A stretch of DNA of 64,000 bases. Origin: Oscillospiraceae bacterium (GTDB lineage Bacteria > Bacillota > Clostridia > Oscillospirales > UBA929). The notes beneath the pieces were generated by a model. The model had not been told where the DNA came from, made no database searches, and saw only the letters and a list, made by a program, of their open reading frames with translations. Shown piece after piece: positions 1 to 53,209 of the stretch. Each line of letters opens with the position of its first letter. Position 1 is the first letter of the stretch. The translations under genes and the position numbers were made by a program. Where the stretch lies: the NCBI GenBank assembly GCA_031254195.1, contig JAIRUW010000044.1, forward strand, positions 6,208 through 70,207, in the 5' to 3' direction.

Positions 1-70
1 AGTTCAGACTGGGCACAGCTCCTTGCTCCGTTCAGCGGAGCCTAACGTCCAAAAGGAGGTGTCAACAGCC

Positions 71-370
71 ATGGCAAAAGTCAAAAGCAGGTATGAAACG
101 GTCTTCATCCTCAGCGCTACGCTGAGCGAGGAAGCCACCGCAGCCACCGTAGAGAAGTTCAAAACCCTGATCGAGCAGAACGGTACGATCGGGGAAATCG
201 ACGAGTGGGGCAAACGCCGCCTCGCCTACGAGATCAACGACGAGGCGGAAGGGTATTATATGCTGATCAACTTTGAATCAGACCCCGATTTCCCCGCCGA
301 ACTCGACCGCGTCTACCGCATTACCGAAGGCGTACTGCGCAGCCTGATCATCTGTAAAGACGAAAAATGA
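71..370 (+). CDS. rpsF: 30S ribosomal protein S6
   Basis: ORF 23..370. The internal ATG at 71 is preceded by AAAAGGAGGT (51-60). The translation MAKVKSRYETVFIL...WGKRRLAYEI is S6-like, and the rpsF-ssb-rpsR gene order is canonical. Confidence 0.93.
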   Translation: MAKVKSRYETVFILSATLSEEATAATVEKFKTLIEQNGTIGEIDEWGKRRLAYEINDEAEGYYMLINFESDPDFPAELDRVYRITEGVLRSLIICKDEK

Positions 371-380
371 GGGATAGTCT

Positions 381-839
381 ATGCTGAACAAGATCATCTT
401 AATGGGCCGCCTCACCCGCGAGCCCGAGCTGCGCACCACACAGAACGGCATCAGCGTCGCGAGCTTTACCCTCGCCGTGGAGCGCGACTTCCAGCGCGGC
501 GAGGAGCGGCAGACCGATTTCATCGACATCGTGGCGTGGCGCGGAACCGCCGATTTTGTACACAAATATTTCCGCAAGGGCCAGCTCGTCGCGGTGACAG
601 GCCGCCTCCAGTCCCGCAAGTGGGAGGACAAGGACGGCAACAAACGCACCTCCTTCGAGGTGGTTACTGAGGAAGTGCATTTCGCCGAGAAAAAGCAAGA
701 CTCTCCTAATTACGGCGCGCCGCCGCCCGCCGGGGCGTCCCCGCAGCGCGCGCAACAGGACGAGTCGCCCCCGTTCCGGCTCGACGCTCCCGCCACCTTC
801 GCGGAGCTCGACGACGACGACGGCGAACTGCCCTTTTAA
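381..839 (+). CDS. ssb: single-stranded DNA-binding protein
   Basis: OB-fold N-terminus (MLNKIILMGRLTREPELR...FIDIVAWRGTA), a Pro/Gly/Gln-rich linker and the acidic C-terminal tip DDDDGELPF typical of bacterial SSB. Confidence 0.95.
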   Translation: MLNKIILMGRLTREPELRTTQNGISVASFTLAVERDFQRGEERQTDFIDIVAWRGTADFVHKYFRKGQLVAVTGRLQSRKWEDKDGNKRTSFEVVTEEVHFAEKKQDSPNYGAPPPAGASPQRAQQDESPPFRLDAPATFAELDDDDGELPF

Positions 840-843
840 TATC

Positions 844-963
844 GAGCTGCTCCATCGTCTCGCAGGAAGTCTAAACGACGCCGGAGGGCGAATTCACTTC
901 GCCCGCAAGCGGCAGTTTAGACAACCGACCGCGAGGCGTACATGGAGCGTAACATGAAAGGAG
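844..963 (+). repeat. Element A copy 1: long imperfect hairpin repeat between ssb and rpsR, ending in the rpsR SD
   Basis: Shares GAGCTGCTCCATCG, GAATTCACTTC and GGCGTACATGGAGCGT.ACA..AAAGGAG blocks with 16090-16184. Internal pairings: GTCTAAAC/GTTTAGAC, GGGCGAA/TTCGCCC and GCTCCAT/ATGGAGC. Confidence 0.7.
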
Positions 964-973
964 AATATAACCC

Positions 974-1210
974 ATGGGAACCGACAGAGGCCCCCGCGGG
1001 CGCAAGCGCAGGAAGGTATGCTCCTTCTGCGCCGACCGTGTGGAGCATATTGACTATAAAGACGCCGCCAAGCTGCGCCGTTTCTTATCCGAGCGCGGCA
1101 AGATCCTGCCCCGCCGCATGACCGGCACCTGCGCCGCCCATCAGCGCGAAATGACTTTGGCCATCAAGCGCGCGCGGCATATCGCCCTGCTGCCGTATGT
1201 GACGGAGTAA
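974..1210 (+). CDS. rpsR: 30S ribosomal protein S18
   Basis: The translation ...[64 protein letters not shown] is S18. The SD AAAGGAG lies at 957-963. Confidence 0.95.
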
Positions 1211-1230
1211 AACACAGCGACAATAACGGT

Positions 1231-1258
1231 AAAAGACGCAATTTGCTTGCGTCTTTTT
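1231..1258 (+). terminator. rho-independent terminator after rpsR
   Basis: Stem AAAAGACGCAA (1231-1241) pairs with TTGCGTCTTTT (1247-1257) around the loop TTTGC, and runs into a T tract. Confidence 0.75.
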
Positions 1259-1275
1259 GCTTGACATGCTATACT
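1247..1275 (+). promoter_or_regulatory. candidate sigma-A promoter for queT (TTGCGT-17-TGcTATACT extended -10)
   Basis: -35 TTGCGT at 1247-1252, a 17-nt spacer, then TG at 1267-1268 and TATACT at 1270-1275. Predicts a leader of about 140 nt. Confidence 0.45.
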
Positions 1276-1295
1276 AGAGCAGATTCACCGCCCGT

Positions 1296-1335
1296 GTACT
1301 ATAAATAGCAATCCCCCGCGAGCTATTTATAGTAC
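1296..1335 (+). promoter_or_regulatory. perfect 14-bp inverted repeat (hairpin or operator) in the queT leader; function unknown
   Basis: GTACTATAAATAGC (1296-1309), loop AATCCCCCGCGA, GCTATTTATAGTAC (1322-1335). Confidence 0.5.
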
Positions 1336-1425
1336 GAGCGCAATCTTGGCCGGAGAAGGCTTTGCCTTCGCAGGGCAAGATGGAGCGGCAGGGCGCGCGT
1401 GAATCGTGACAGAAGGGAAGCCTCT

Positions 1426-1914
1426 ATGATTAAGAAGACCGCCTTTTCCGGCATCATCGCCGCTATGTACATAGCCCTTGTGATGGTCACCATACCGACC
1501 TCATTCGGGCTTATGCAGTTTCGCGCCGCCGAGGCGCTGACCCTGCTGCCGTTTTTATTCCCGGAGGCCATCCCGGGGCTGTTTATCGGTTGTCTTCTGA
1601 GCAACATGATTTTCTCCGACCTGGGGCCGCCCGACTGGATATTCGGCTCGTTCGCGACTTTATCCGCCGCAATCGTCACGGCGCGGTGCAAAAACCGCTG
1701 GCTGGCGGCCCTGCCGCCGGTCGTGATAAACGCGGCGGTAATCGGCGTCATGCTCAGCGTCTTATTGCAGCTGGGGATGGCGGCTGTTCCGTTCAGCATC
1801 CTGACCGTCGGGCTGGGGCAGGCTATTGTCTGTTTCGGGCTGGGCGTCCCGTTGATTTATATTTTGGAAAAGGCGGGCTTGCGTGACCGTCTTTCCTTAG
1901 ACCGGAGGATATGA
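1426..1914 (+). CDS. queT: QueT family queuosine-precursor transporter (ECF S-component)
   Basis: ORF 1399..1914; ATG at 1426 lies after GAAGGGAAG. The translation has ...FGLMQFRAAEALTLLPFLFPEAIPGLFIGCLLSNM...GSFATLSAA..., the QueT/COG4708 pattern, and is multi-TM. Confidence 0.85.
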   Translation: MIKKTAFSGIIAAMYIALVMVTIPTSFGLMQFRAAEALTLLPFLFPEAIPGLFIGCLLSNMIFSDLGPPDWIFGSFATLSAAIVTARCKNRWLAALPPVVINAAVIGVMLSVLLQLGMAAVPFSILTVGLGQAIVCFGLGVPLIYILEKAGLRDRLSLDRRI

Positions 1915-1916
1915 TT

Positions 1917-3080
1917 ATGGACAAACACATCGAGACCGCGGCGGCACGCTTCGCCGCACTGATCGCTTCGCAGCTGAAACGCGTCGAGAACATGGCGGCA
2001 CAGCCGGACTTTATCGACTATGCCAAGCTGGACAAGCTGATTATCGGCGTCTGCGGCGGCGACGGCATAGGCCCGTCGATCACCGACGCGGCGCGTTCAC
2101 TTTTGGAAGAGCTGCTGCACGGCGAAGCGGTGGAGTTCCGTGAAATCGCGGGACTGACCATCGAGCGCCGCGCCGAGTGCGGCAAGGCCATCCCCGACGA
2201 TACGCTGGAAGAGCTGAAAGCCTGCCATATTATCCTCAAAGGCCCGACCACCACTCCCCGCGCCGGCGACCCGTGGCCCAACATTGAGTCGGCCAACGTC
2301 GCCATGCGCAAGGAGCTTGACCTTTTCGCCAATGTCCGCCCGGTCAAGGTGCCTATGCAGGGAATCGACTGGGTCTTTTTCCGCGAGAACACCGAGGGCG
2401 CGTATGCTGTCGGCAGCCAAGGCGTCCATGTCACCGACGATCTGGCCATTGACTTCACCGTCACCACCACCGGCGGCACCGAGCGCATCGTCCGCCAATC
2501 GTTTGAGTACGCCAAAAAGACCGGGCGGAAGCGCGTCACCGCCGTAACCAAAGCCAACGTCGTCAAGGCGACCGACGGCAAGTTTCTATCCATCGCCAAG
2601 GAGATCGCGGCGGAATACCCCGATATTGCCTTTGACGATTGGTACATCGACATCATGACGGCAAAGCTCCTCGACGAAAAGCGCCGGAGGGACTTTTCCG
2701 TCTTCGTCCTGCCCAACCTCTACGGCGACATTTTAACCGACGAGGCCGCCGAGTTGCAGGGCGGCGTAGGTACCGCCGGTTCCGCCAACATCGGCAAGCG
2801 GTACGCTATGTTTGAGGCCATCCACGGCTCTGCGCCCCGTATGGTGGAGGAAGGGCGCGCTCCATATGCCGACCCGACTTCGATGCTGCGGGCCTCAGTG
2901 TTGCTGCTGGAACACATCGGACGCGCAGAGAAGGCCCAACTGCTGGAGCGCGCGTTGGACATCTGCGCCATCGAAGAGCGCCGCGTAACCGTCACAGGGC
3001 GCGACACCGGGTGTACCGGGCGGCAGTTCACCGAATATGTGCTGGAGACAGTCGGCAAAATCAAGGGCGGAACGCTATGA
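1917..3080 (+). CDS. isocitrate/isopropylmalate dehydrogenase family protein
   Basis: Contains GVCGGDGIGPSI, ...RENTEGAY... and NLYGDILTDEAAELQGGVGTAGSANIG, motifs of the beta-decarboxylating dehydrogenase family. The ATG at 1917 has better SD spacing (GGAGGA 1904-1909) than the one at 1911. Substrate not assignable. Confidence 0.85.
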   Translation: MDKHIETAAARFAALIASQLKRVENMAAQPDFIDYAKLDKLIIGVCGGDGIGPSITDAARSLLEELLHGEAVEFREIAGLTIERRAECGKAIPDDTLEELKACHIILKGPTTTPRAGDPWPNIESANVAMRKELDLFANVRPVKVPMQGIDWVFFRENTEGAYAVGSQGVHVTDDLAIDFTVTTTGGTERIVRQSFEYAKKTGRKRVTAVTKANVVKATDGKFLSIAKEIAAEYPDIAFDDWYIDIMTAKLLDEKRRRDFSVFVLPNLYGDILTDEAAELQGGVGTAGSANIGKRYAMFEAIHGSAPRMVEEGRAPYADPTSMLRASVLLLEHIGRAEKAQLLERALDICAIEERRVTVTGRDTGCTGRQFTEYVLETVGKIKGGTL

Positions 3081-10262: not shown

Positions 10263-11267
10263 ATGCGGACGCCGCTTTATCATGAACACCTCGCCGCCGG
10301 CGCGAGGATGACAGATTACCACGGCTGGGAGCTGCCGGCGCAATACGGAGGCATCCTCTCCGAACACGCCGCCGTCCGGCAGCGGGCGGGGATTTTCGAC
10401 GTATCACATATGGGCGAAATCTTGGTCTCCGGCACGGGCGCGCTTGGTTTTTTGCAGATACTGCTGACGCACGACGTGCGCCGCCTGGAAACCAAGCCGT
10501 GGGTTTATTCCCCCATGTGCGGCACGGACGGCGGGACGGTGGACGATGTGATTGTCTGCCGCTATGACGGCGGCTTTCTGCTCTGCGTCAACGCCGCCAA
10601 TACGGAGAAGGACTTTTCCTGGATACGGCAAAACGCCCCTTCCGATGTTACGGTGGAAAACATTTCAGAGCGGTTCGCGCAGATTGCCGTACAGGGGCCG
10701 GACGCGTTTACCCTCTTGGAGAAAGCCGATCTGTCCGCCGTTTTGCTCCAGTCAAACACAGGATATACCGGTGAGCGCGGCTGTGAGCTTTATGTAGCGC
10801 CCGGGGACGCGCCAAAGCTATGGCGGGAGTTGACAGCGGCGGGCGCGGTTCCCTGCGGGCTGGGCGCGCGCGACTTGCTGCGCACCGAAGCGGGGCTGCC
10901 GCTGTACGGGCATGAGCTTTCGGAGGACATCTCCCCCTTAGAGGCGGGGCTTGGCCGTTTTGTATGCTTTGACAAGGGAGATTTCATCGGGCGGGACGCG
11001 CTGCTCAGGCTGCGGGACAGCCCTTCCCGGCGGCGTTTGATTGGCTTGACGATGCAAGGCCGCGCCATCCCAAGGCCGGGGTATGCCGTTTTGGGCGACG
11101 GGATCCCTTGCGGAGCTGTGACGTCGGGCGGCGTCGCGCCCGCGCTTGGATGCAACGTAGCGATGGCGTTTGTTACGAGCGAAGCGGAGAGATATACGAT
11201 CGTCATACGCGGCAAAGAGGAACCCGCGGTTTTGGCGGAACTGCCGTTTTACAGGAGAAGGAAATAA
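10263..11267 (+). CDS. gcvT: glycine cleavage system aminomethyltransferase (T protein), shortened variant
   Basis: RTPLYHEHLAAGARMTDYHGWELPAQY...GIFDVSHMGEI...TGYTGERG...GLGARDLLRTEAGLPLYGHEL. At 334 aa it is shorter than the usual ~360. Confidence 0.88.
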   Translation: MRTPLYHEHLAAGARMTDYHGWELPAQYGGILSEHAAVRQRAGIFDVSHMGEILVSGTGALGFLQILLTHDVRRLETKPWVYSPMCGTDGGTVDDVIVCRYDGGFLLCVNAANTEKDFSWIRQNAPSDVTVENISERFAQIAVQGPDAFTLLEKADLSAVLLQSNTGYTGERGCELYVAPGDAPKLWRELTAAGAVPCGLGARDLLRTEAGLPLYGHELSEDISPLEAGLGRFVCFDKGDFIGRDALLRLRDSPSRRRLIGLTMQGRAIPRPGYAVLGDGIPCGAVTSGGVAPALGCNVAMAFVTSEAERYTIVIRGKEEPAVLAELPFYRRRK

Positions 11268-11668: not shown

Positions 11669-12938
11669 CTATATCCCGCAGACGACGCGAGAGCAGGAGG
11701 ACATGCTATCCGCGCTGGGGGTCCATAGCATCGGCGAATTGTTTTCCTCCATCCCGCTGCAATGCCGCACCGGCGGCATATCCGGCCTGCCCGCCCCCCT
11801 CTCCGAGGCCGCGCTCCGCCGCCTGCTGGAGGAGGTCGCGTCACAGAACGACACACACGAGCCGCTATTTATCGGCGCGGGGCTGTATGACCACTATGTC
11901 CCGGCGGCGGTGGACGCGCTGTGCTCCCTACCGGAGTTCGTCACGGCCTACACGCCGTACCAGCCGGAGGTCAGCCAAGGCACCTTGACGGCCATTTTTG
12001 AATTTCAGACGGCCATCTGCCGCCTTACCGGGCTGGACGTCTCCAACGCTTCGATGTATGACGCCGCCACCGCCGCCTGCGAGGCGATGATGCTGTCGGC
12101 GGCGCAGACGCGGCGCAAGGCGGTATATGTCACCGCCGCCACCCACCCGCACATCCGCGAGACGCTGGCGGCTTACGCCCGCTTCAACGGCTTGACGCTC
12201 CTCACTGTCCCGTTCGACGGGCGCGGCCAGGCGGCGCTTGACGGGACGCTTGACGGCGCGGCCTGCCTGATTGCGCAGTCGCCCAACTTCTTCGGCGTCA
12301 TTGAGCCTATGCGTTCCCTGGCGGAGGCCGCCTCGCGGGCGGGCGCCGTGCCCGTCGCTGTCTGTGACCCGCTGTCATTGGGGCTGCTGGAAAGCCCGGG
12401 CGAATGCGGCTTTGACATCGCCGTGGGCGAATGCCAGCCGCTCGGCTCTTATATCTCGTTCGGCGGCCCCCACGCCGGGTATTTTTCCGCGAGGGAGAGT
12501 TTTATGCGCCGGATACCGGGGCGTATCGCCGGGGAAACGGTTGAATTGAACGGGGACAAGCGCGGGTTTGTGCTGACGCTGCAAGCGCGGGAACAGCATA
12601 TCCGCCGTGAAAAGGCCACCTCCAACATCTGCTCCAACGCCGCGCTGTCGGCTTTGCGGGCCAATGTGTACCTCTCCCTGTTGGGGCCGCAGGGGCTGCG
12701 GGAAACCGCTTCACTGTGCGTCCGCAAGGCGGCGTATCTGCGGGGGTTGCTGGAGGAGCACGGGATCAAGCCCCTGTTCGACGCGCCGTATTTCAGGGAG
12801 TTCGCCGTTGACGCGGATTTGCCGGGCGCGTTTTCGCTCAAAGATCCGTTCGGCTCGCTGATTGCCGTAACGGAAAAGAGGACCAAGGAAGAGATCGACA
12901 GGTTTGTCAAGCACGCGGTAAGGGGGTACAGACATTGA
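11661..12938 (+). CDS. gcvPA: glycine dehydrogenase (decarboxylating) subunit 1
   Basis: MNSYIPQTTREQEDMLSALG...TAYTPYQPEVSQGTL...REQHIRREKATSNICSN. The start overlaps the gcvH stop. Confidence 0.9.
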   Translation: MNSYIPQTTREQEDMLSALGVHSIGELFSSIPLQCRTGGISGLPAPLSEAALRRLLEEVASQNDTHEPLFIGAGLYDHYVPAAVDALCSLPEFVTAYTPYQPEVSQGTLTAIFEFQTAICRLTGLDVSNASMYDAATAACEAMMLSAAQTRRKAVYVTAATHPHIRETLAAYARFNGLTLLTVPFDGRGQAALDGTLDGAACLIAQSPNFFGVIEPMRSLAEAASRAGAVPVAVCDPLSLGLLESPGECGFDIAVGECQPLGSYISFGGPHAGYFSARESFMRRIPGRIAGETVELNGDKRGFVLTLQAREQHIRREKATSNICSNAALSALRANVYLSLLGPQGLRETASLCVRKAAYLRGLLEEHGIKPLFDAPYFREFAVDADLPGAFSLKDPFGSLIAVTEKRTKEEIDRFVKHAVRGYRH

Positions 12939-14368
12939 CGGTTTATGAAAAATCCGTACCGGGGCGGCTCGGCTTCATCCCCGAAGAGTGCGATGTGCCG
13001 GAGGCTGCGCTGGGAGGTATCGTCGGGGAGAATCTGCGGAAATCGCCGCCCGCGTTACCCGAAATTGCGGAGATCGACGTCGTGCGTCACTATACCGCGC
13101 TGGCCAAGATGAATTTCGGCGTGGACACCGGCTTCTACCCGCTCGGCTCCTGTACGATGAAGTACAACCCCAAAATCAATGAACAGCTTGCCGCCCTGCC
13201 GGGCTTTGCCCTCGCGCATCCAATGCTGCCGGACGAAAAAATACAGGGCTGCCTTCGCCTGATGGCGGAGCTGGAGATGATGCTGCGCGCTATATGCGAT
13301 ATGGGCGCTTTCACCTTACAGCCCGCGGCGGGGGCGCACGGCGAGCTGGCCGGGCTGATGATCTTCGCGGCATATTTCCAAAAGCGCGGCGAACAGAACC
13401 GCAGCGTCATCCTCATCCCCGATTCGGCGCACGGCACAAACCCCGCGTCGGCAGCGCAGACAGGCTTTACTGTCCGCACCGTGCCGTCCGGCCCGGACGG
13501 GCTGGTTTCTCCCGCATCCCTTGAGAAGATTGTGGCGGAGACGGGAGACAGGCTGGCCGGGTTGATGCTCACCAATCCCAATACGCTGGGGCTGTTTGAA
13601 AAACATATCCCCGCCATTGCCGAAATCATCCACAGCGCGGGCGGGCTTCTGTATTACGACGGGGCCAACCTCAACGCCATTATGGGGCATACATCGCCCG
13701 GCGCGATGGGGTTTGACGTCGTCCATCTCAACCTGCACAAGACTTTTTCCACGCCGCACGGCGGCGGCGGTCCCGGCGCGGGCCCCGTCGGCGTGACGAA
13801 AACGCTGATGCCCTTTTTGCCAGGGCCTAGGGCCATATGGGACGGAGAGCAGTACCGCTCCGTACCGGCGGGGGAGGACAGCATCGGGCGGGTGCGGTCA
13901 TATTTCGGCAATTTCGGCGTACTGGTTCGCGCTTACTGCTATATCCGCTCGCTGGGCGGCAAGGGGTTGAAGAGCGCGTCCGAAACCGCCGTGCTGAACG
14001 CCAACTGGATGCTATCGAAGCTGTCCGGCGCTTATCACGCGCCGTTTGGGGAGTGCTGTATGCACGAGTTTGTACTGTCGGCGGCGCTGCTCAAGGACAA
14101 GACCGGCGTGACGGCGATGGACATTGCCAAGGGGCTAATCGACCGGGGCTTTCACCCGCCGACCGTCTATTTCCCCGCCATCGTCAAAGAAGGCATGATG
14201 ATCGAACCGACCGAAACGGAGTCGGCCGAGACGCTGGACGCGTTCGTGTCGGCGATGCTGGAACTTACATACGCCGACCCTGAAGCGCTAAAAAGCGCGC
14301 CGCACAACGCTCCTGTGGGGAGGCTGGACGAGGTGAAAGCGGCGCGCGAGCCGGTGGTGAAGCGGTGA
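12935..14368 (+). CDS. gcvPB: glycine dehydrogenase (decarboxylating) subunit 2
   Basis: TTG start (TTGA overlap with gcvPA) after AAGGGGG. ...GSCTMKYNPK...DSAHGTNPASA...NLHKTFSTPHGGGGPG includes the PLP-lysine motif. Confidence 0.9.
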   Translation: MTVYEKSVPGRLGFIPEECDVPEAALGGIVGENLRKSPPALPEIAEIDVVRHYTALAKMNFGVDTGFYPLGSCTMKYNPKINEQLAALPGFALAHPMLPDEKIQGCLRLMAELEMMLRAICDMGAFTLQPAAGAHGELAGLMIFAAYFQKRGEQNRSVILIPDSAHGTNPASAAQTGFTVRTVPSGPDGLVSPASLEKIVAETGDRLAGLMLTNPNTLGLFEKHIPAIAEIIHSAGGLLYYDGANLNAIMGHTSPGAMGFDVVHLNLHKTFSTPHGGGGPGAGPVGVTKTLMPFLPGPRAIWDGEQYRSVPAGEDSIGRVRSYFGNFGVLVRAYCYIRSLGGKGLKSASETAVLNANWMLSKLSGAYHAPFGECCMHEFVLSAALLKDKTGVTAMDIAKGLIDRGFHPPTVYFPAIVKEGMMIEPTETESAETLDAFVSAMLELTYADPEALKSAPHNAPVGRLDEVKAAREPVVKR

Positions 14369-16200
14369 ACAGCGTCAAGTGGGCGTTGCAATGGGCGGGG
14401 CGGCAAAAATGGCGGCTTTACGCCGGGTTCGGCATGTCGTTTTTGTTTGTGGGGCTGTTGATGGCCGAGCCGTTCTTTTTTAGGCGGATCATCGACGACG
14501 TATTGCTGGGCGGCGACCATGACGCTTTAATCCCGCTGCTGGCCGGAGCGTTCGGCGTCGGCCTCTGCTTCATGGCGATTAAATATGCCTCCAACATATC
14601 CTGGGAAATATTGTCGCAGGAGATCGTGCGCGGGATGCGGCGCGATCTCTTCTCGCGCATTGTCTCCCAGTCGCCGGATTTTTTCAGGCGAAACGCGGCG
14701 GGCGACCTGATTACCAAGGGCACCGGCGATGTGGACATCGTAAGGCACTTTATCTGCTGGGTTCTGCCCAGTATGATTGAGAGCTTTATGATGGCGGCGG
14801 CGACGCTGGTCATTTTTCTGATTATCGACCCGCTGTATGCGTTATGCCTGTTTGTCATCACGCCAATTGCGGCGGCGCTGGGCTTTAGGCTGGGCAAACG
14901 GATGCGCCCGGCGCACGGGGCGGTGCGGGAGCAGCGGGCCGCGCTGTCTACCGCCGTCAACGAAAACATAAACGGCATCCGCGTCGTCAAGGCGTTCTGC
15001 CGTGAGCCGTTCGAGACGGACAAGTTCACCCGCGAGAACGAGCTTTACCGCGACGCGCAGCTGACGGTCAACAAGACATGGCTCCGCTACGCCCCTCTGA
15101 TTGAGTCAGCGTCGCAGTTTCTGAGCGTCATCAACCTGGTGGTGGGCGGCATCATGGTCATCTCGGGACGGGTCACGCTGGGGCAGATGCAGATCTTCCT
15201 GTCGCTGGCGTGGGCGCTCAACCAGCCGATCGTCAACATGGGCACGCTGATCAACGACGCGCAGCGCTTCTTTGCTTCCACCGAAAAACTGATAGAGCTG
15301 TATTATTGGCGCAACGCCGTCCAAAGCCCGGAAAACCCCACCGAGCATACGGACATCCGCGGCGATATATCGTTCAAGGACGTCTCTTTAAGCCTCGGCG
15401 GCACGGACATCCTAAAAGACATCAACATCGAGATACCGGCCGGCGCCACCGTCGGGTTTATGGGCCCCACCGGTTCGGGCAAGACGGTTCTGGCCTCCCT
15501 GATACCGCGCTTTGCCGGCGTGACGCGGGGCGCGGTGCTGGTGGACGGCGTCAACGTTGAGCATTACAAGCTGGACGTCCTGCGCGGCGCCGTGGGCATG
15601 ACGATGCAGGACGTTTTCCTCTTTTCCGCGTCGGTGGAGGACAACATCGTCTACGGGGAACCGGACGCCGATATGGGGCGTGTCCGGCAGGCCGCCACGG
15701 CCGCCGACGCCGACCGCTTTGTATCCGGCCTGCCCGAAGGGTATAGGACCATCGTGGGGGAACGCGGCACGGGGCTTTCCGGCGGGCAGAAGCAGCGCAT
15801 TTCCTTAGCGCGCGCCTTGCTGCCCGGCCCTTCGATCCTGATTTTGGACGACACCACCAGCGCTGTGGACATGGAGACGGAAAAGGAGATACAAAAACAG
15901 CTCCGCGCCCTGCCCCGCCGCGCCACCACCCTCATCATCGCGCAGCGGGTCTCCTCCATCCGCCACGCCGACCGTATCTATATCTTAGAAGACGGGCGCG
16001 TCTCCGAGGAGGGGACGCATGAGGAGCTGATGGCTAGGAAGGGATATTACTATCAAACATACCTGCTCCAACAGGGCCAGTGGGAGAAAGAGCTGCTCCA
16101 TCGCCGGGCAGAGAGCGGAAGCGGGAATTCACTTCCCGCTTCCGAGAGCGCCCGCACGGCGTACATGGAGCGTGACAAAGGAGGTCGGGGGGATGGCTGA
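14365..16200 (+). CDS. ABC exporter, fused permease/ATP-binding subunit A (heterodimeric type)
   Basis: GTG start overlapping the gcvPB stop (GTGA). A six-TM domain is followed by Walker A GPTGSGKT, LSGGQKQRISLARAL and ILILDD. About 35 C-terminal residues are read through Element A copy 2. Confidence 0.88.
   Translation: MNSVKWALQWAGRQKWRLYAGFGMSFLFVGLLMAEPFFFRRIIDDVLLGGDHDALIPLLAGAFGVGLCFMAIKYASNISWEILSQEIVRGMRRDLFSRIVSQSPDFFRRNAAGDLITKGTGDVDIVRHFICWVLPSMIESFMMAAATLVIFLIIDPLYALCLFVITPIAAALGFRLGKRMRPAHGAVREQRAALSTAVNENINGIRVVKAFCREPFETDKFTRENELYRDAQLTVNKTWLRYAPLIESASQFLSVINLVVGGIMVISGRVTLGQMQIFLSLAWALNQPIVNMGTLINDAQRFFASTEKLIELYYWRNAVQSPENPTEHTDIRGDISFKDVSLSLGGTDILKDINIEIPAGATVGFMGPTGSGKTVLASLIPRFAGVTRGAVLVDGVNVEHYKLDVLRGAVGMTMQDVFLFSASVEDNIVYGEPDADMGRVRQAATAADADRFVSGLPEGYRTIVGERGTGLSGGQKQRISLARALLPGPSILILDDTTSAVDMETEKEIQKQLRALPRRATTLIIAQRVSSIRHADRIYILEDGRVSEEGTHEELMARKGYYYQTYLLQQGQWEKELLHRRAESGSGNSLPASESARTAYMERDKGGRGDG
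16090..16184 (+). repeat. Element A copy 2 (inside the 3' end of ABC-A, ending in the ABC-B SD)
   Basis: Has the same three conserved blocks as 844-963. Its own stem is CGGAAGCGGGAA/TTCCCGCTTCCG around the TTCAC loop. Confidence 0.7.
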
Positions 16201-22171: not shown

Positions 22172-26920
<4,749 letters not shown>

Positions 26921-28143: not shown

Positions 28144-31050
28144 ATGCTGTCAGGCAGTGCTCAGGATTCTATAGCGCAAGACGTGATACAATATCGGCAG
28201 GTAAACGACGCGCTGGGCGTCGCGCATTGGGATATGATTGTCATCGATGGAGATACGGCAAATCCAGCCAGTAAGGTTACCTGGTCTGTGAAATTCCGGC
28301 AAATGCTTGGCTTTTCGTCGGAGGAGGATTTCCCCAACAACATCACCAGCTGGACCGGCCGTCTGCACCCCAGCGACCACGACAGGGTCATGTCAGCCAT
28401 AACATTGCATATAAACGACCGCACCGGGCAGACGCCGTATGACTTGGAATACCGTCTGATGTCCAAAACCGGCGGCTATAAGTATGTTCGCGCGTTAGGC
28501 GCTACCATGCGGGACGGCGAGGGCGTGCCGTTATGGGTGGCCGGGATATTGGAGGACATCACCGACAAAAAGCAGATGCGGGAACAGATGAGGGAAACGG
28601 AAGATAGGATGCAGCTCATGCTGAAAGCCGCCCCCTTTGTCGTCTCCATGTGGAACAGGAATCTGACCCCCATCGATTGCTCGCTGGACACGGCCAATGT
28701 TTTCGGGTTTACGAGTAAGCAGGAATTTTTGGATAGATTCGTGGCTTTGGCGCCTGCCGTCCAGCCGGACGGCAGGCTGACGGCGGATGTGTCGGAGGAG
28801 GCTTTCCGCGCGGCGTTTGAAACGGGGTTCCACCGGTATGAGTATTGGCACTACACAACAGGCGGCGACTTGATCCCGCTCGACGTCCCGCTTATCCGCA
28901 TCCGGTATAAGGATGGCTTCGCCGTCGTGGCATACGCGCGCGACTTGCGAGAGCAGAAGGCGATGACGGCAAGGATCGAGCGGCAGAATAAGCTGCTGGA
29001 CACGCTGAATCAAACGGCGACAACCCTTCTGTCCGTCCATGACGGAGTGTCCTTTGAAGATTCTTTGCTTGAAAGCATGGGCCTGATTGGGCGATGCGTG
29101 GACGTAGACCGTGTCCTGATCTGGCAGAATGACGACAACAGCGGTCCCGCTTTCAATATTCTCAGATATAGCTGGCTCAGCGACATCGGCAAACAGTACA
29201 CAGCCGTCCCGGCCGGCCTGAGCCTCCCTAGCGGCGGCGTCCCTGAATGGTTGGATGCGCTCGCGCGGGGTGAGTGTGTCAACAGCGTGATCAGCGAGAT
29301 ATCGCCGGACGGGCATACGGTCATGAGCCGCTATGAGATTAAATCCGTTACAATGATCCCGCTATTTTGGCAGGATCGGTATTGGGGCTTTATCAGCCTT
29401 GACGACTGCCGCCAAGAGCGCATTTTTTCCAAGGAAGACTTGGATATACTGCGTTCCGCCGGCTTGATGATCGTCAATGCCCTGCTGCACCATGTTATGA
29501 TAGAGAGCGTCCATGCCGCCAACGAGGCGAAAAGCAGTTTCCTTGCCAATATGAGCCATGAGATGCGGACGCCGCTCAACGCGATCATCGGGATGACGGC
29601 AATCGGCAAAGGGGCGCGGGATATTAACGAGATGCAATACGCGCTCGGCAAAATCGAGGACGCGTCGGCCAATCTGCTCAATGTCATCAACGACGTATTG
29701 GATATGTCTAAAATAGAGGCCAACAAACTGGAGCTGTCGCCCGCGGAGTTCAACATTGAGTGGATGCTGCAAAGGGTGGTTTCGGTCGTCAATTTCCGCA
29801 TGAACGAAAAGCGGCAAATATTTGATGCCCACGTGGACGTCAAGGTTCCGCATTTCATCATTGGCGACGACCAGCGGCTGGCGCAGGTCGTCACCAACTT
29901 ACTCGCCAACGCGAGCAAGTTCACTCCGCCAAACGGCAGTATACACCTTGCCGTATCTCTGGCGGGAGAGCTGGACGGGCTTTGCACACTGCGGTTTGAA
30001 GTGACCGACAGCGGAATCGGCATATCGAAAGAACAGCAGGAAAACCTGTTTCACGCGTTTTCACAGGCGGAAAGCGGGATTAGCCGAACATATGGGGGCA
30101 CCGGCCTCGGGCTTGCGCTGTGCAAACGCATTGTCGAGCTGATGGACGGCGAGATTCGGGTCGAATCGGAGAGCGGTCAAGGGGCAAGGTTTATCTTCAC
30201 CATCAAAGCCGTTCGCGGCAAGCGGCGCCTCTTGTCATTGCTCAGTCCCGTCGTTAAAGGAGAAGAGCTGCATATACTGGCTGTTGACGACGATGAGTTC
30301 ATGCGGGAATACATCAAGGGAGTCTTTAAGCATGTCGGCATCCGGTGCAGCGTGGCGTCCGACGCCGCCGAAGCCCTCAGGATGATCGAGGAAAACGGCG
30401 ATTATGACCTGTATTTCATCGACTGGCTTATGCCCGGAATGAACGGCATAGAGCTAACCAAGCACATCAAAGCGCGGGAGAGAAGCAAAAAGTCTTTTGT
30501 GGTGCTGTTTTCCGGCGACTGGATGGTCATCAAGCAGGAAGCGTTTAAGGCGGGCGTGGACAAATATATGCTAAAGCCATTGTTCTCCACGGCCATCATT
30601 GAATGCGTCAACGAATGTCTCGATGTCGAAAGCGCCCGTCAGGGCGAGTCGTTTATGGAGGCGGCGCACGGCCAGTTCGCGGGGAAGAGACTATTGATCG
30701 TCGAGGATATAGAGATCAACAGGGAAATTGTCATATTGCTGCTGAACGGCACGGGGATCGAGATTGACGAGGCCGAAAATGGGCTCGAAGCGGTTGAAAT
30801 GATCGAAGCCTGCCCCGGAAAGTATGACCTTGTGTTCATGGACATGCAAATGCCAATAATGGACGGGCTGGAAGCCACGCGGCGCATCCGCGCCCTGCCC
30901 GCGGTGAAAGCACTGCCTATCATCGCCATGACGGCGAACATCTTTAAGGAAGACATCGACAAATGCTTCGCCGCCGGGATGGACGGCCATCTCGGCAAGC
31001 CGCTGGATATGAACGATATGCTGGCGATACTGCGTAAATATTTGCTGTGA
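28144..31050 (+). CDS. hybrid sensor histidine kinase HK2 (PAS-PAS-GAF-HisKA-HATPase-REC-REC), cytoplasmic
   Basis: 968 aa with no TM segment. H-box ANMSHEMRTPLNAIIGM. GGTGLGLALCKRIVELMDG. Two receivers (ILAVDDDEF...FIDWLMPGMNG and LIVEDIEINREI...VFMDMQMPIMDG). Confidence 0.9.
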   Translation: MLSGSAQDSIAQDVIQYRQVNDALGVAHWDMIVIDGDTANPASKVTWSVKFRQMLGFSSEEDFPNNITSWTGRLHPSDHDRVMSAITLHINDRTGQTPYDLEYRLMSKTGGYKYVRALGATMRDGEGVPLWVAGILEDITDKKQMREQMRETEDRMQLMLKAAPFVVSMWNRNLTPIDCSLDTANVFGFTSKQEFLDRFVALAPAVQPDGRLTADVSEEAFRAAFETGFHRYEYWHYTTGGDLIPLDVPLIRIRYKDGFAVVAYARDLREQKAMTARIERQNKLLDTLNQTATTLLSVHDGVSFEDSLLESMGLIGRCVDVDRVLIWQNDDNSGPAFNILRYSWLSDIGKQYTAVPAGLSLPSGGVPEWLDALARGECVNSVISEISPDGHTVMSRYEIKSVTMIPLFWQDRYWGFISLDDCRQERIFSKEDLDILRSAGLMIVNALLHHVMIESVHAANEAKSSFLANMSHEMRTPLNAIIGMTAIGKGARDINEMQYALGKIEDASANLLNVINDVLDMSKIEANKLELSPAEFNIEWMLQRVVSVVNFRMNEKRQIFDAHVDVKVPHFIIGDDQRLAQVVTNLLANASKFTPPNGSIHLAVSLAGELDGLCTLRFEVTDSGIGISKEQQENLFHAFSQAESGISRTYGGTGLGLALCKRIVELMDGEIRVESESGQGARFIFTIKAVRGKRRLLSLLSPVVKGEELHILAVDDDEFMREYIKGVFKHVGIRCSVASDAAEALRMIEENGDYDLYFIDWLMPGMNGIELTKHIKARERSKKSFVVLFSGDWMVIKQEAFKAGVDKYMLKPLFSTAIIECVNECLDVESARQGESFMEAAHGQFAGKRLLIVEDIEINREIVILLLNGTGIEIDEAENGLEAVEMIEACPGKYDLVFMDMQMPIMDGLEATRRIRALPAVKALPIIAMTANIFKEDIDKCFAAGMDGHLGKPLDMNDMLAILRKYLL

Positions 31051-32493: not shown

Positions 32494-34152
32494 GTGAAAC
32501 AGACATCCAAAAACGAATATGGCCTTGGCTGGATTTCTCAAAAAACCAAAGGCACACGGCTTCAACTTTCGCTGTATACCTTCTTCATCCTCTGCGGCGC
32601 GGGCATCGAGCTGTCGATCGCGTTTTTCCTCAAAACCTTCATCGACATTGCCACGGGCGACGTGGACGCGTCGCTGCTGCGCGTCGGGCTGCTTGCGGGC
32701 GCGGTCATTGCTGTGGGCGGCATCATATACCTGCTCAACTCAATCCTCTCAAAATGGATATATGGTAAAATAGAGCGCAACTTGAGGACAGAACTCATGG
32801 ATGTGATTTTCTCAAGGCGCATGGCGGACATCTCTAAGCAGCATACAGGGGAGCTTTTGACAAAACTGACCGTTGACATTCAAGCCGTCAGCACCTGTTT
32901 CACCAACATCATCAGCAATATGGTGGGCGGGGCCGCTTCCGCCATCGTCGCCACAGCCGCGCTGTTTTTCCTCAACTGGAAAATGGCGGTCATCATGCTC
33001 GTCCTTACACCGGTTTTGATGCTTGTGATGGGGATACTGACGCCCTTTATCCAAAAAGCGAGCACGGTAGATAAGGAAAACGACGAAAAAAATCGTAGCA
33101 TGATGCAGGAGAACCTCAGCAGGATCATGCTGATCAAGGCGTACTTTATGAAGGGGAAAACGATTGAAAAGGTCAAAGACCTCTATGCCCATAAAATGAA
33201 AAGCGGCATAAAGCTGGGCGTATGGGAAGGGCTTACGATGTTCTCGGGAATGCTGGTGGCAAACGCGATGTTCATGGTCGCCATCGGCGTCGGCGCGTAT
33301 TTCGTCTTGCAGGGCGAAACTACGCTCGGAAGCCTTATCGCCATCGTTCAACTTCTCAATTACATCGTAAATCCGGTCTCAAGGTTTTCCCAAACAATTT
33401 CGCAGGTCAGCCAAGCAATAGCCTCATCAGGCAGGATTGGCGCGATTTACAGCCTTCCCGCGGACAAAGAGGCGGTAATGACGGACTCGGTCGACGCCGT
33501 GGAATTGGTCGCCGAGAATCTGAGCTTCTCGTATAACGGCGACGACAACATACTTATGAATATAAACGCGTCATTTGCAAAGGGACATATTACAGGAATC
33601 GCGGGAAAGAGCGGGAGCGGAAAAAGTACCTTACTAAAGCTCCTGATCGGGCTGTATACACCCCGGCAGGGAACGGTTGTCTTGAATCACGCCGCCGGCA
33701 CTCTGGACGAAATCACGCCGCAAGTAGCCTATGTCCCCCCTGTTGATTACCTGTTTTCGGGGACGGTGGCGGAGAACATCATCATGTCGGAAAATGAGCC
33801 CCGGTTGGAGGAGCTGAAAGCCGCGTCGTCCAGGGCGAATATTCTCGATTTCATTCAGTCCTTGCCGGACGGGTTTGACACGCCGATTGGGGAAAGCGGC
33901 GGAACCGTGTCAAGCGGCCAGGCGCAAAGGCTGGCCATCGCGCGGGCCATCTATAAAAAATCTCCCATCATTGTCTTCGACGAGCCTACCGCGAACCTTG
34001 ACGCCGATTCTATCGATGTATTCCAATCGGCGGTCAGGCAGCTCGCCAAGGATAAAATCTGTATCATCGTTACCCATGACATATCCACGATTACCGTTTG
34101 CGATAAGGTGTACCTCCTCGAAGAAGGATGTGTCAGAGAGAAAGGGGCCTGA
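32494..34152 (+). CDS. ABC exporter, fused permease/ATP-binding protein
   Basis: 552 aa, GTG start. TM domain followed by Walker A GKSGSGKST, VSSGQAQRLAIARAI and IIVFDEPTANLD. Confidence 0.88.
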   Translation: MKQTSKNEYGLGWISQKTKGTRLQLSLYTFFILCGAGIELSIAFFLKTFIDIATGDVDASLLRVGLLAGAVIAVGGIIYLLNSILSKWIYGKIERNLRTELMDVIFSRRMADISKQHTGELLTKLTVDIQAVSTCFTNIISNMVGGAASAIVATAALFFLNWKMAVIMLVLTPVLMLVMGILTPFIQKASTVDKENDEKNRSMMQENLSRIMLIKAYFMKGKTIEKVKDLYAHKMKSGIKLGVWEGLTMFSGMLVANAMFMVAIGVGAYFVLQGETTLGSLIAIVQLLNYIVNPVSRFSQTISQVSQAIASSGRIGAIYSLPADKEAVMTDSVDAVELVAENLSFSYNGDDNILMNINASFAKGHITGIAGKSGSGKSTLLKLLIGLYTPRQGTVVLNHAAGTLDEITPQVAYVPPVDYLFSGTVAENIIMSENEPRLEELKAASSRANILDFIQSLPDGFDTPIGESGGTVSSGQAQRLAIARAIYKKSPIIVFDEPTANLDADSIDVFQSAVRQLAKDKICIIVTHDISTITVCDKVYLLEEGCVREKGA

Positions 34153-34155
34153 GCG

Positions 34156-34274
34156 CTTGCATAACCCGGCAGGTCGCGGAACACCCCGTCGCTCTAGCGA
34201 GTTTACGAGCGTAAGCAGAGGGGTTTCCGCGACCTGCCGGGTGTGATGCAAGGTGACACCAGTTTCGCAAGATT
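34156..34274. repeat. Element B full copy: ~100-nt hairpin between convergent ABC and HK3 genes (probable bidirectional terminator) plus a conserved 3' tail
   Basis: TTCCGCGACCTGCCGGG is perfectly complementary to CCCGGCAGGTCGCGGAA (17 bp), extended by GCATAAC/GTGTGATGC. The tail GCAAGGTGACACCAGTTTCGCAAGATT recurs at 21911-21937. Confidence 0.6.
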
Positions 34275-34276
34275 GT

Positions 34277-36805
34277 TTATTCGGGGAAGACTGTCAGCAA
34301 ATACCTGTGCAGTGCTTTTAAGTTTTCGCAGAACTCCGGGAAAAGTTCGGCACAGGTTTCCACTTCTCTGTTCTTCGCCGCCGCCTCCAATTTGAACGCC
34401 GTTTCACTCAGCCTCATAGCCCCGATGGTCGCCAGCATGGATTTCATGGCGTGAACGGCGATGGCGAACTGCCCGATGTTCCTTTCCTTTATATATGCCG
34501 TCATTTTATCGCATTCATCAATGAGCTTGCTGTTAAACAGCTCCAGCGCTTCGCGGTACAGCTCCTCTATCCCCGAAACGCGGCTCATGCCGATTTCAGC
34601 GTTTATATCCCCGGATTGGCTCACGGCGTCTAAAAAGCTGCTGCCCGTGTTTGCCTGCACCGGCGTTTCCTTTGATACCTTCCTTTCAACAGCCTCCTCC
34701 ACGGATTCCAAGCCGTTTTCCTTCCTCTTTATCTTTTCCTCCGGGAGCCATTTCTCCAAAACCGTGCTCAGTTCTCCCATGCTGATCGGTTTGCTAACAA
34801 AGGCGTTAAACCCTTTGGAAAGGAACATCTCCTTAGCCCCTTGGACCGCGTTGGCCGTCAGCGCGACAATAGGGATACGGCGGTATTTTTCGCCGAGCTT
34901 GCGTATCTCGGCCGCAGCCTCCACGCCGTCCATCTCCGGCATCATATGATCCATAAAAATAATATCGAAATCTTCGCGCTGCACGATCTTTATCGCGTCA
35001 GCGCCGGAGGCGACCATTTTCGGCTCGATCAGATGCAGCCGCAGCAAGCCCTGCGCCACCCGGAGATTGAAGCTGTTGTCGTCAACGACCAGAACTTTGG
35101 CGTCCGGCGCGTATAGGGCGCGCTCCTTCGCCGCATCTTTGCTGTATTTCACGCCGGCTTTGCTGCCCTCCACGATCGGAATCGTGATGGTAAAGACCGT
35201 CCACATCCCATACTCGCTATCGACCGTAATGGTTCCGCCCATCATTTCTACAAAGGATTTGCTGATGGCAAGCCCCAAGCCCGTTCCGACGATGCTTCTG
35301 TTTTTACTTTTGTCGGCTTGTGAGAAAGCGTCGAACAGGCCGGACAGAGCCTCTTTGCGGATACCCCGGCCGGTATCCATGACCGCAAAGGCAAGCATCC
35401 CCTTATCGGGTTCGGCTGTAATCCTGAGCTTAATGCTTCCTTTTTCGGTGAACTTAACGGCGTTTCCGCAGATATTGGTCAGAATCTGCCTCAGCCTTAT
35501 ATCATCCCCAAACAGATATTCCGGCAGTTCCCCTTCGTGTTCGAGCGTGAACTCCAGCCCCTTGTTCTGCGCCATAAAGCCAAACATTGACTTTAGATTA
35601 TCCACAAAGGCGCGAAAATCATAATCGACCGGGCTGAGCTCCATCCGTCCCGCCTCGATCTTCGACATATCCAATATGTCGTTGATGATGCCCAGCAGCG
35701 ATTGCGCCGAAGCGCTGATGTCCTTGACTTGCCCCATCTGCCGCTCGCTCAGCGGTTCGTTGAGCAGCAATCCCGACATGCCGATGATGGCGTTCATCGG
35801 CGTCCTGATCTCATGGGACATATTGGCAAGAAACTCGCTCTTTGACCGCGACTGCGCCTCCGCTTCTTCTTTTAGTATCGCCACTTCCTCAAATGGCTTC
35901 TTAATGAACCTTGAGGCGATGATCGCGAATGCGATATTGAGCAAAATGCTTATGAGGCCGACCAAAAGCAGCCCCCTGTCCACATCCCTGACCGGGCTTT
36001 CGGTAAGCGGCGCCACGATTCCAAGGGCCCACCCCTCTTCCGAGCCAGATATGGGCCTGTAGGCGCATATCCGGGGAATCCCGGACATGGAGTAAAACCC
36101 GATCCCCCTGTTGCCCTCGATTAGGTGGCTGATGACGCCCGCCAACTCTTTATACTCCGGTTCATCCTGCGCCCTGATGATGAAATTCTGGCGACTCTGC
36201 ACCCATTCCTCACGGGCATTGGCGATTACGTAGCCTTCGTTATCGTCAATAAAAATATGCCCCGATTCCCAAATCGTATAAGCGTTTGTCAAATTACTGA
36301 AATACAGGCCGTGGATTGTAAGCACCAAAATACGGCCCGGTATGTCGTGCATGGGGGCCGCTAAATAAAACATGACCCCATTCTCGGTGGGGATGGTGGA
36401 TGTAAAGGACATCGTTCCCAAAACAGCCCTCTGGATATAGGGATCATCCAGCAAACTCGGGCCGGCCGGGAAGTCCCCCGCCGAAGCGACGATCTCCGCG
36501 TCGTTATCAAAAACCGCCATCCCGATAAATACCGGGTACTCTGCTCCCTGCGCTTCCAAGACGTCAGGCCATGTGTCCTGCTCATAGTGCATCAGGTGAT
36601 GGGCAACCAGGTTCGCTTGCAGCCTCAGCAGCTTCAGCTCGGTGCTGATAAACTGGTCCGCTATATCGGCCACCACCAGCATATCGGCCTCAATGTACTG
36701 GTCGATATTCGTTCTTACATACCCGGTACCCGCCATGATGCTGAACAGGATAATGAGAAAGTTAGTGGAAACGATCACAAGGATTGCCCTGACCTGTATT
36801 TTCAT
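34277..36805 (-). CDS. hybrid sensor histidine kinase HK3 (TM, Cache-like extracellular domain, TM, HisKA, HATPase, REC, HPt)
   Basis: 842 aa. H-box [35 protein letters not shown]. Receiver [10 protein letters not shown]...[13 protein letters not shown]-terminal HPt-like segment [17 protein letters not shown]. Confidence 0.9.
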
Positions 36806-52964: not shown

Positions 52965-53125
<161 letters not shown>

Positions 53126-53147
53126 AACGGCATAGAAGTATGCTTTC

Positions 53148-53185
53148 ACGCCCCCAAACTTATTGTTTGGGGGCGTTTATATATT
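53148..53185 (+). terminator. riboswitch expression-platform terminator
   Basis: ACGCCCCCAAAC (53148-53159) pairs with TTTGGGGGCGT (53166-53176). Followed by TTATATATT. Confidence 0.75.
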
Positions 53186-53209
53186 AAATTATATGAGGAG
53201 CTGATCACA

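Follow-up and report, generated by a model that had tools for sequence, protein, structure and literature searches.

A probable new family of small footed hairpin repeats, co-transcribed with host genes, in termite-gut Oscillospiraceae

The 64,000-nucleotide (nt) stretch of contig JAIRUW010000044.1 (assembly GCA_031254195.1) analysed here, hereafter the window, belongs to an uncultured termite-gut Oscillospiraceae bacterium whose closest relatives show 92-95% RpsR identity, and it carries four copies of a hairpin repeat, designated W1 to W4, the first of which lies in the spacer between ssb and rpsR. The repeat probably represents a new family of small non-coding elements, hairpins standing on short feet and similar to repetitive extragenic palindromes (REPs) and miniature inverted-repeat transposable elements (MITEs), that are co-transcribed with their host genes in a clade of termite-gut Oscillospiraceae. 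The family is previously undescribed and belongs to the general REP/MITE kind, being neither of the named families. This reading follows from its multiple copies at non-orthologous sites, a presence that varies among close relatives, the occurrence of collapsed forms, a copy inserted in frame within a gene, the nearly equal stability of the two strands and the lack of a relative in Rfam. The adjacency of copies to Shine-Dalgarno (SD) sequences is best read as incidental.

The repeat had been noticed in a first-pass annotation of the window as two copies, W1 and W2, whose ends and apical loop are conserved and whose stems have changed in a compensatory manner, a description borne out by the extra copies, empty orthologous sites and covariation presented below. 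A window search confirmed the three blocks common to 844-954 and 16090-16177 at exactly the positions given, namely GAGCTGCTCCATCG at 844-857 and 16090-16103, GAATTCACTTC at 890-900 and 16125-16135, and GGCGTACATGGAGCGT at 935-950 and 16158-16173, the common order being GAGCTGCTCCATCG, GAATTCACTTC, GGCGTACATGGAGCGT-R-ACA. The GAGCTGCTCCATCG block has four window matches at no more than two mismatches versus 0.61 expected, which none of 100 shuffles equalled, and the GAATTCACTTC 11-mer by itself is within chance (34 of 100 shuffles give two matches). Each copy does form a single long hairpin, with folding energies of −55.2 kcal/mol for W1 (z −5.4) and −47.2 kcal/mol for W2 (z −3.8). The sequences between the blocks, originally described as unrelated, are not wholly so, and the outer and middle stems align by column with several two-sided changes.

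The full-length, 111-nt W1 (844-954, plus strand; 101.9 bits, E = 5.8e-22) starts 4 nt past the TAA stop codon of ssb (837-839, plus strand). Its feet are GAGC at 844-847 and GTAACA at 949-954, and between them the basal helix (849-855/942-948), helix 2 (856-863/931-938), a TAC bulge (939-941) and an apical stem (886-892/898-904) closing a TTCAC loop (893-897) can be discerned. W2 (16090-16177, plus strand; 82.5 bits), likewise full-length at 88 nt, has a corresponding basal helix (16095-16101/16165-16171), a TAC bulge (16162-16164), a GTGACA 3′ foot (16172-16177) and a perfect 12-bp apical stem (16116-16127/16133-16144) with a TTCAC loop (16128-16132). This copy had been placed at the junction of two ATP-binding cassette (ABC) protein genes, ABC-A and ABC-B, which is incorrect: it lies inside the ABC-A open reading frame (ORF; 14365-16200), where it is read through in frame as part of the C-terminal tail, directly 5′ of a GGAGG SD and the overlapping ABC-B start codon (ATG at 16194).

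Pattern and mismatch searches of the loci of relatives yielded six more copies in three related termite-gut Oscillospiraceae genomes. Three are found in L015 of the metagenome-assembled genome (MAG) Cx337_bin19 (L015/L021). Among these, C1 (6595-6705) is a full copy located within the rpsF leader hairpin, toward its apex, C2 (363-402) is a 40-nt form that makes up the entire TAA...ATG spacer ahead of miaA, with its 3′-arm GGAG 8 nt before the miaA ATG and serving as the only SD of this gene, and the 34-nt C3 (8293-8326) lies directly past a thioredoxin stop codon. In MAG Nt197P3bin64, the 131-nt N1 (L023 6006-6136, on the minus strand, which is the gene strand) contains two interior hairpins and starts 2 nt past the stop codon of a cotF-like gene. 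The third genome holds S157 (L157 4072-4183) in the ssb/rpsR spacer, with an interior differing from that of W1, as well as a half copy at L157 2891 that comprises only the 5′ half and directly follows a stop codon. The rpsF leader is itself conserved as AGCTCCTTG-hairpin-...GTCCAAAAGGAGG in the window (1-60), L015 (6560-6727) and L016 (about 335-390); it is probably of the S6:S18 type, which Rfam did not call, and in L015 its hairpin loop is swapped for the full element copy.

Covariance-model searching, which the first-pass annotation had suggested, brought up two further copies in the window. The model R1 was built from seven copies (W1, W2, C1-C3, N1 and S157) with W3 and W4 left out, and the two are therefore independent of it. 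W3 (34151-34258, plus strand) is a diverged copy of 108 nt that scores 41.9 bits with R1 (E = 1.2e-7) and 82.2 bits with a second model. It begins inside the TGA stop codon (34150-34152) of an ABC gene (32494-34152) and takes up most of the interval before a convergent histidine-kinase-like ORF (34277-36805, minus strand); its feet are GAGC (34151-34154) and GTGACA (34253-34258), its basal helix is CTTGCAT (34156-34162) paired with ATGCAAG (34246-34252), and the copy folds with −68.1 kcal/mol. W4 (1277-1411, plus strand), also diverged, is 135 nt long with two interior hairpins and is situated between the end of rpsR and the QueT gene (ATG at 1426), scoring 34.9 bits with R1 (E = 5.3e-6) and 47.8 bits with the second model. 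Here the feet GAGC (1277-1280) and GTGACA (1406-1411) enclose the basal helix GATTCAC (1282-1288)/GTGAATC (1399-1405), helix 2 (1289-1293/1391-1395) and a CGC bulge (1396-1398), and both CGCCCGTGT and the two-hairpin layout are common to W4 and N1. R1 found nothing comparable on the minus strand of the window, and the second model, run with filters off, gave no further credible copies; the weak matches at 23246-23318, 14033-14092, 10284-10313 and L018 10666-10743 (E 0.06-0.9) fall in coding sequence and are attributed to chance. Regarding the surroundings of W4, no preQ1 riboswitch was detected for the QueT gene (PF06177), its leader (1277-1425) holding W4 instead, and a hairpin AAAGACGCAA...TTGCGTCTTTTT at 1228-1258 after rpsR resembles an operon terminator that a simple terminator scan did not flag; it is followed, directly 5′ of W4, by TGCTATACT, an extended −10-like motif.

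The overall architecture follows a common layout, in which a 5′ GAGC and one free base are followed by a 7-bp basal helix, helix 2 (CGYC.../...GGCG) and a 3′ GUGACA, which is GUAACA in W1, and a bulge of about 3 nt is found on the 3′ arm between the basal helix and helix 2 in all members. The feet are constant while the sequence of the basal helix varies, being GCUCCAU/AUGGAGC in W1, W2 and N1, GCCCCAU/AUGGGGC in S157, CUUGCAU/AUGCAAG in W3 and GAUUCAC/GUGAAUC in W4, with close variants bearing one or two further changes in C1, C2 and C3. The SD-like GGAG of the basal helix is consequently not conserved, and GGGG in S157, GCAAG in W3 and GAAUC in W4 take its place with pairing kept. Across a nine-copy alignment, which is small and was fitted to the model, 91.7% of the cells pair and 11 of the 17 modelled pairs show two-sided change; none of 500 shuffles equalled the observed pairing values, which provides statistical support for the pairings first drawn from two copies, and slid controls pair at 32-50%. 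The hairpins differ little in stability between the two strands, with summed energies over the nine copies of −420 kcal/mol for the sense and −406 kcal/mol for the antisense fold. No copy carries an ORF.

The interior of the element is modular: it can be absent (forms of 34-46 nt), or consist of one long hairpin, often with a AAUUCACUU loop, or of two hairpins, the elements thus ranging from 34 to 135 nt and the full-length ones from 88 to 135 nt. By interior, the subfamilies are W1/C1, W2, W3/S157 together with a copy from the source metagenome (X1), W4/N1, and the interior-less forms C2, C3, a W3-type in X1 and a W4-type in a further data set, X2. The W1/C1, W3/S157 and W4/N1 subfamilies each occur in more than one species, at differing loci. 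The AAUUCACUU loop is closed by GGGCGAA/TTCGCCC in W1 and GCGGGAA/TTCCCGC in W2, and two X2 copies with W3-type outer stems have it closed by GGGCAAA/TTTGCCC and GGGAAAA/TTTACCC.

Comparison with relatives identifies W1 and W2 as insertions. The ssb/rpsR spacer is 18-33 nt long and element-free in L015, L016, L017, L018 and L019, and it is element-free in L156 too; at this orthologous site, a point raised in the first-pass annotation, L157 has a copy with a different interior. The short spacer of the relatives consists of a stop codon, a few bases, AAAGGAG and ATG, and AAAGGAG or AAGGAGA stands at an unchanged distance from the rpsR ATG where the element is missing. The element had been described as ending exactly in the SD of the downstream gene, but the unit stops at GTRACA (954 and 16177), and the rpsR SD, AAAGGAG at 957-963 (plus strand), is ancestral flank outside the element. 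The assignment of AAAGGAG and AAGGAGG to the flanks follows from their retention in relatives without the element and from alignments to X1, which stop at 16090 and 16177. Similarly, ABC-A orthologues are about 580 residues long and end in ...QQGxWxGGxxVG, whereas the window protein has 611 residues and holds KELLHRRAESGSGNSLPASESARTAYMERDK between QWE and GGRGDG, from which it follows that W2 was inserted in frame into the C-terminal tail, adding about 31 codons. Empty ABC sites joining 16085 to 16194 are present in the data set X3, and in a relative from X2 W3 is absent at its locus, with a joint between 34155 and 34277.

A collapsed state is seen at the ssb/rpsR site of a close relative in X2, which reads GAGC|GTGACA (GAGCGTGACA), after which comes a small hairpin of unrelated sequence, CCAAGC-ATAC-GCTTGG. 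In W1, the GAGC foot (844-847) and the GAGC that closes the 3′ arm (945-948) flank the palindrome as a direct repeat of 4 nt, and the X2 allele fits the product expected from slippage between the two. At the ABC-A tail position of W2, L027 and L156 have different small hairpins, which indicates a permissive site. A smaller second repeat, GGGCGAA-N5-TTCGCCC followed by CTAC, was also observed after rpsR in L016 (1447-1471) and L017 (1263-1287); its opposite strand reads as GTAG plus palindrome, the canonical REP layout, and the apical stem of W1 has the same arms. Hairpins related to this second repeat lie in frame at the ABC-A tail site as a tandem pair in L027 (3660-3725) and, along with one arm of the second-repeat motif (TTCGCCCCTGC), in L156 (about 11715-11765).

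The copy number was assessed by aligning Logan contigs of X1 onto the four window copies. Contig depth reaches 45-60 over W2 versus 10.7 in its flanks, 83-88 over the W3 interior versus about 11, and about 85 over the 3′ end of W4 versus about 10-12, with ratios of about 2.6x over the 5′ part of W1 and 4-8x over W2, W3 and W4. Other X1 contigs match W2 exactly over 16090-16177 and then diverge, and X1 contigs end inside element copies. Roughly 20 or more copy-equivalents at host-genome depth are thus present in X1, possibly spread over several genomes. On one 2595-nt contig of X1, a gene ending in ...GGMKLPF*, a tail like that of single-stranded DNA-binding protein (SSB), is followed by TAATAAA and a copy with a W3/S157-type interior; this second SSB-like gene is either a paralogue or a gene of another strain with a copy at the equivalent place.

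The co-orientation originally noted for W1 and W2 extends to all ten copies with readable gene neighbours, which are in sense orientation. Some 9 of 12 copies, a count that takes in two copies with only the left flank read from X1, start at −2 to +4 nt relative to a stop codon, the pattern being seen in W1, C2, C3, N1, S157, the L157 half copy, W3 and the X1/X3 flanks, and the sequence to the left of a copy is almost always A/T-rich (TAA, an overlapping TAG, AAA or AAT). Location between two co-transcribed genes is not a property of the family, as the genes on either side of W3 converge, W4 and C1 belong to 5′ leaders, W2 is within an ORF and, in X2, the start of a divergent gene directly adjoins one copy; nor is an end in the SD, N1 being about 75 nt from the next start codon. 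The host genes are unrelated and include genes for ribosomal proteins, ABC exporters, QueT, cotF-like, miaA and trx. Several copies of the relatives flank the rpsF-ssb-rpsR operon, an observation that is biased, since their loci were fetched around that operon. About 75% of the window ORFs are on the plus strand, and the GC skew, positive on the element sense strand at all four loci, is confounded by gene orientation and, as a means of telling gene from replication orientation, uninformative at this scale. Scans for terminator-like structures in window positions 1-2000 (W1, W4) and 33500-35000 (W3) flagged no copy, and no T-run follows the 3′ foot in any copy, W2 and those of the relatives having been read directly from the sequence; an intrinsic terminator was discarded accordingly.

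Wider database scans added few members. The exact 20-mer 3′ block has no match in the genome contig collection, which does not hold the source genome, and a degenerate version gives six matches there, of which two are true (L021, the same contig as L015, and L023) and four, from Marinobacter, Bacteroidaceae and Mesorhizobium, are due to chance. A two-block pattern matches 13 times in metagenome contigs, all in coding sequence and none as a hairpin, and is likewise ascribed to chance. In viral contigs, where the 3′ block has five matches, no locus among the matches listed for the two blocks has both ends as a hairpin, again consistent with chance. The relative represented by L018/L019 has no copies in 42 kb. 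The first-pass view that this is not a named element agrees with Rfam, which has no family matching the copies and returned only sub-threshold, microRNA-like noise around W1 and W2 even at permissive E-values. The sole Rfam matches are a tRNA in L015 and a flavin mononucleotide (FMN) riboswitch in the window (RF00050, 52964-53128, plus strand, 102.6 bits), located upstream of ORF 53123-53884.

Among known systems, the family most readily invites comparison with REPs, in which a variable palindrome stands on an unpaired tag, GT[AG]G or CGTC (PMC3733652, PMC6006769). REPs are found chiefly past the ends of ORFs, where the neighbouring genes run in one direction or converge, and may also occur in frame within genes (PMC3733652, PMC6006769); like REPINs, they are mobilised by RAYT/TnpA-REP proteins (PMC3733652, PMC6006769, PMC3116915). 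Shared with REPs are a G+C-rich palindrome standing on a short, conserved and unpaired tag, stem sequences that vary by class, minimal forms (34-46 nt) of about REP size and the lack of target duplication, 'double-foot' forms being known as well; the copies also lie mostly just past ORFs, among unidirectional or convergent genes, are co-transcribed and occasionally in frame. Unlike in REPs, the feet are GAGC and GUGACA and are not mutual reverse complements, no RAYT gene was seen, the copies appear to number tens, and full copies of 88-135 nt have a modular interior and a conserved apical loop. In contrast to BIMEs and REPINs, the orientation is uniform and not alternating. Features of MITEs such as Correia/NEMIS, RUP, BOX and ERIC/IRU (PMC3184786) are also evident, including a length under 200 bp, the lack of an ORF, one long hairpin, multiple copies, internal deletion and insertion variants, and insertion into transcribed intergenic regions with occasional fusion to ORF 3′ ends, which MITE-type repeats are able to lengthen (PMC3184786). 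What distinguishes the family from MITEs is the lack of a consistent target-site duplication, the strict sense orientation, a terminal inverted repeat that covaries between copies in one genome (GCTCCAT, CTTGCAT, GATTCAC), and the fact that no cognate insertion sequence (IS) with the same ends was found, the end blocks occurring in the window only in short element copies. The in-frame W2, which adds about 31 residues and leaves the protein unbroken, is reminiscent of Rickettsia palindromic elements (RPE; cited through PMC3184786). Unlike RPE, only 1 of about 10 fully read copies is intragenic, and it is in a terminal tail; there is also no sequence relation, and the host clade is another one. 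The details of ERIC and Correia elements in the former comparison and of RPE in the latter are general background. Finally, the ends of IS200/IS605-type elements and their ORF-less derivatives (PMC6006769, PMC2775950) offer the combination of a hairpin and short single-stranded DNA recognition that the family would need, along with strand-specific orientation and no target duplication, but those elements have two different subterminal hairpins and insert beside a fixed tetra- or pentanucleotide, whereas here both ends form one hairpin and the 5′ flank is merely A/T-rich.

Under the REP/MITE-like reading, the element would be spread in trans, now or formerly, by an enzyme that reads the structure and the two short feet on a single strand, for which the HUH/Y1 enzymes acting on REPs and IS200/IS605 ends may serve as a model. 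Such an enzyme would explain the helix covariation, the fixed feet and the uniform orientation. Selection would retain insertions only where they are harmless, in the few A/T-rich bases that separate a stop codon from the following ribosome-binding site (RBS), in leaders and in disordered protein tails. Sense transcription would add a very stable hairpin to the mRNA (−47 to −68 kcal/mol for full-length copies), probably a barrier to 3′ exonucleases, and a terminating ribosome would have to open a helix that starts 3-9 nt past the stop codon; REPs near stop codons in E. coli have been reported to interfere with termination. In C2, the 3′-arm GGAG appears to have been co-opted as the only SD of miaA.

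Several observations weigh against a REP/MITE-like nature. A search for a mobilising enzyme gave none: there is no transposase among the 20 window ORFs compared with Pfam and none was called in the loci of relatives, and a PF01797-type (RAYT) gene is likewise missing from the scanned window ORFs and the gene lists of the relatives, whose genomes are incomplete. The flanks of at least ten copies show no consistent target-site duplication, an AAA...AAA duplication being possible at W2 and N1 and nothing consistent apparent at W1, W3, W4, C1, C2, C3 and S157. The feet are not GTAG or CGTC, which makes the element neither a classical MITE nor a canonical REP, its copy number appears modest by the metagenome depth estimate, tens and not hundreds, and scans with exact end patterns gave true members in only two related MAGs. 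The uniform sense orientation is stronger than in most REP/MITE families and would fit an RNA-level function too, as would the AAUUCACUU loop retained over altered stems in W1, W2 and the two X2 variants and the slight excess of G-U pairs on the sense strand (18 versus 9). Lastly, two of the four window copies, W1 and W4, flank rpsR, a clustering unexpected from random insertion.

Of the two readings offered in the first-pass annotation, a REP/BIME/MITE-like family fits better and a structured RNA less well. The latter would be a functional cis-acting RNA module whose spread is secondary, with the feet, bulge and AAUUCACUU loop bound by a protein or nuclease that sets mRNA stability or processing in operons. 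It would account for the sense orientation, for unpaired feet that stay fixed while the helices covary, for the loop kept over altered stems, for the sense fold being slightly better in 8 of 9 copies and richer in G-U pairs, and for the enrichment around the highly expressed rpsF-ssb-rpsR operon (W1, W4, C1, C3, S157 and the L157 half copy). However, the sites are not conserved among close relatives, the genes served are unrelated, many copies lack the entire interior, loop included, the antisense fold is nearly as stable, Rfam contains no relative, and the covariation of palindromes can come without selection via arm-to-arm template switching in replication, as in quasi-palindrome mutagenesis, so that this reading is considered unlikely. 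A more specific proposal is translational coupling, in which the basal helix pairs an anti-SD CUCC with the SD GGAG and the ribosome terminating upstream melts the helix and frees the SD. The basal helix of W1, W2, C1, C2, C3 and N1 is GCUCCAU/AUGGAGC or a close variant keeping the 3′-arm GGAG, most copies start 0-4 nt past a stop codon, and C2 spans the whole spacer ahead of miaA, with its GGAG 8 nt before the ATG. Yet the SD-like sequence is replaced in S157, W3 and W4 with pairing kept, a separate ancestral SD follows W1 and W2, W3 has no co-directional downstream gene, and W4 and C1 lie in leaders without an upstream cistron. As a property of the whole family, coupling is already contradicted; it is very improbable, surviving only for single co-opted copies such as C2; sequestration of the SD by an anti-SD as the family function was rejected for the same GGAG/CUCC replacement in W3, W4 and S157.

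The least credible of the alternatives appears to be that the copies are structure-specific recombination sites marking the boundaries of mobile gene cassettes, either like the attC sites of integrons or belonging to another site-specific system. The conserved ends, extrahelical bulge and variable, branching apex (N1, W4), a size range of 34-135 nt that overlaps that of attC, the location of copies directly past stop codons, and the bracketing of rpsR by W1 and W4 in direct orientation are all reminiscent of such sites, but the ends GAGCUG.../...GUGACA misfit the R'' RYYYAAC and R' GTTRRRY boxes and are not mutually complementary, the genes next to the copies are syntenic core genes with housekeeping roles and not cassettes, W2 lies within a gene, and the scanned window ORFs include no integrase. 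A passive palindrome family without a dedicated enzyme, whose copies would be generated by gene conversion or occasional ectopic recombination and by replication errors templated by the hairpin, and would decay through slippage, would agree with the lack of a transposase and of target duplications, with the frequent collapsed forms, among them the X2 ssb/rpsR allele that fits a deletion between GAGC direct repeats, and with the similar stability of the hairpins on both strands. It is nevertheless improbable, as the feet are conserved over at least four subfamilies and four genomes despite the turnover of the helices, unit boundaries are exact in many copies, and each of the subfamilies W1/C1, W3/S157 and W4/N1 is found in more than one species at different loci. 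A last possibility, to be entertained only tentatively, joins spread and function: a footed-hairpin class read on one strand by a dedicated factor, which might be either a protein or nuclease that binds RNA or a new HUH-type enzyme acting on single-stranded DNA through a guide other than GTAG, and then domesticated as a sense mRNA module after the stop codons of highly expressed operons, where it might govern the stability of mRNA segments, unfold in step with termination and, in some copies, set the RBS of the next gene. A REP/MITE-like family remains the preferred explanation.

Resemblances to a number of other motifs were considered and dropped. For GUACAUGGA as a CsrA site, judged by the general consensus, the GGA is located in a helix instead of a loop and lacks conservation; a likeness to domain V of group II introns (GAGC..., CGUAC) fails in the pairing register and at the 3′ end; and a K-turn would require tandem G-A pairs after the bulge, which are missing. 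Programmed bypass of W2 is unneeded, the insertion being in frame without a stop codon. Elsewhere in the window, paralogous segments at 25760-26893 and 29518-31044, with 72-80% identity, were observed in the two large ORFs 22172-26920 and 28144-31050, and among the relatives a large serine recombinase (Resolvase/Recombinase/Zn_ribbon) is encoded in L018 (18008-19588) and L019 (17742-19322).

Small palindromic repeats are well studied in Proteobacteria and barely charted in uncultured gut Clostridia, for which the present family provides a clean example, with fixed feet, covarying helices, modular interiors, collapsed forms, a copy in a transporter tail and a copy that supplies an RBS. The family can give rise to annotation artefacts, in the form of spurious C-terminal extensions and small ORFs, and it leads to fragmented assemblies, X1 contigs ending within its members. 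Should there be a cognate enzyme or binding factor, the feet would offer a precise handle for finding it, and the combination of sense orientation and proximity to stop codons makes the family a test case for selfish spread versus co-option at the RNA level.

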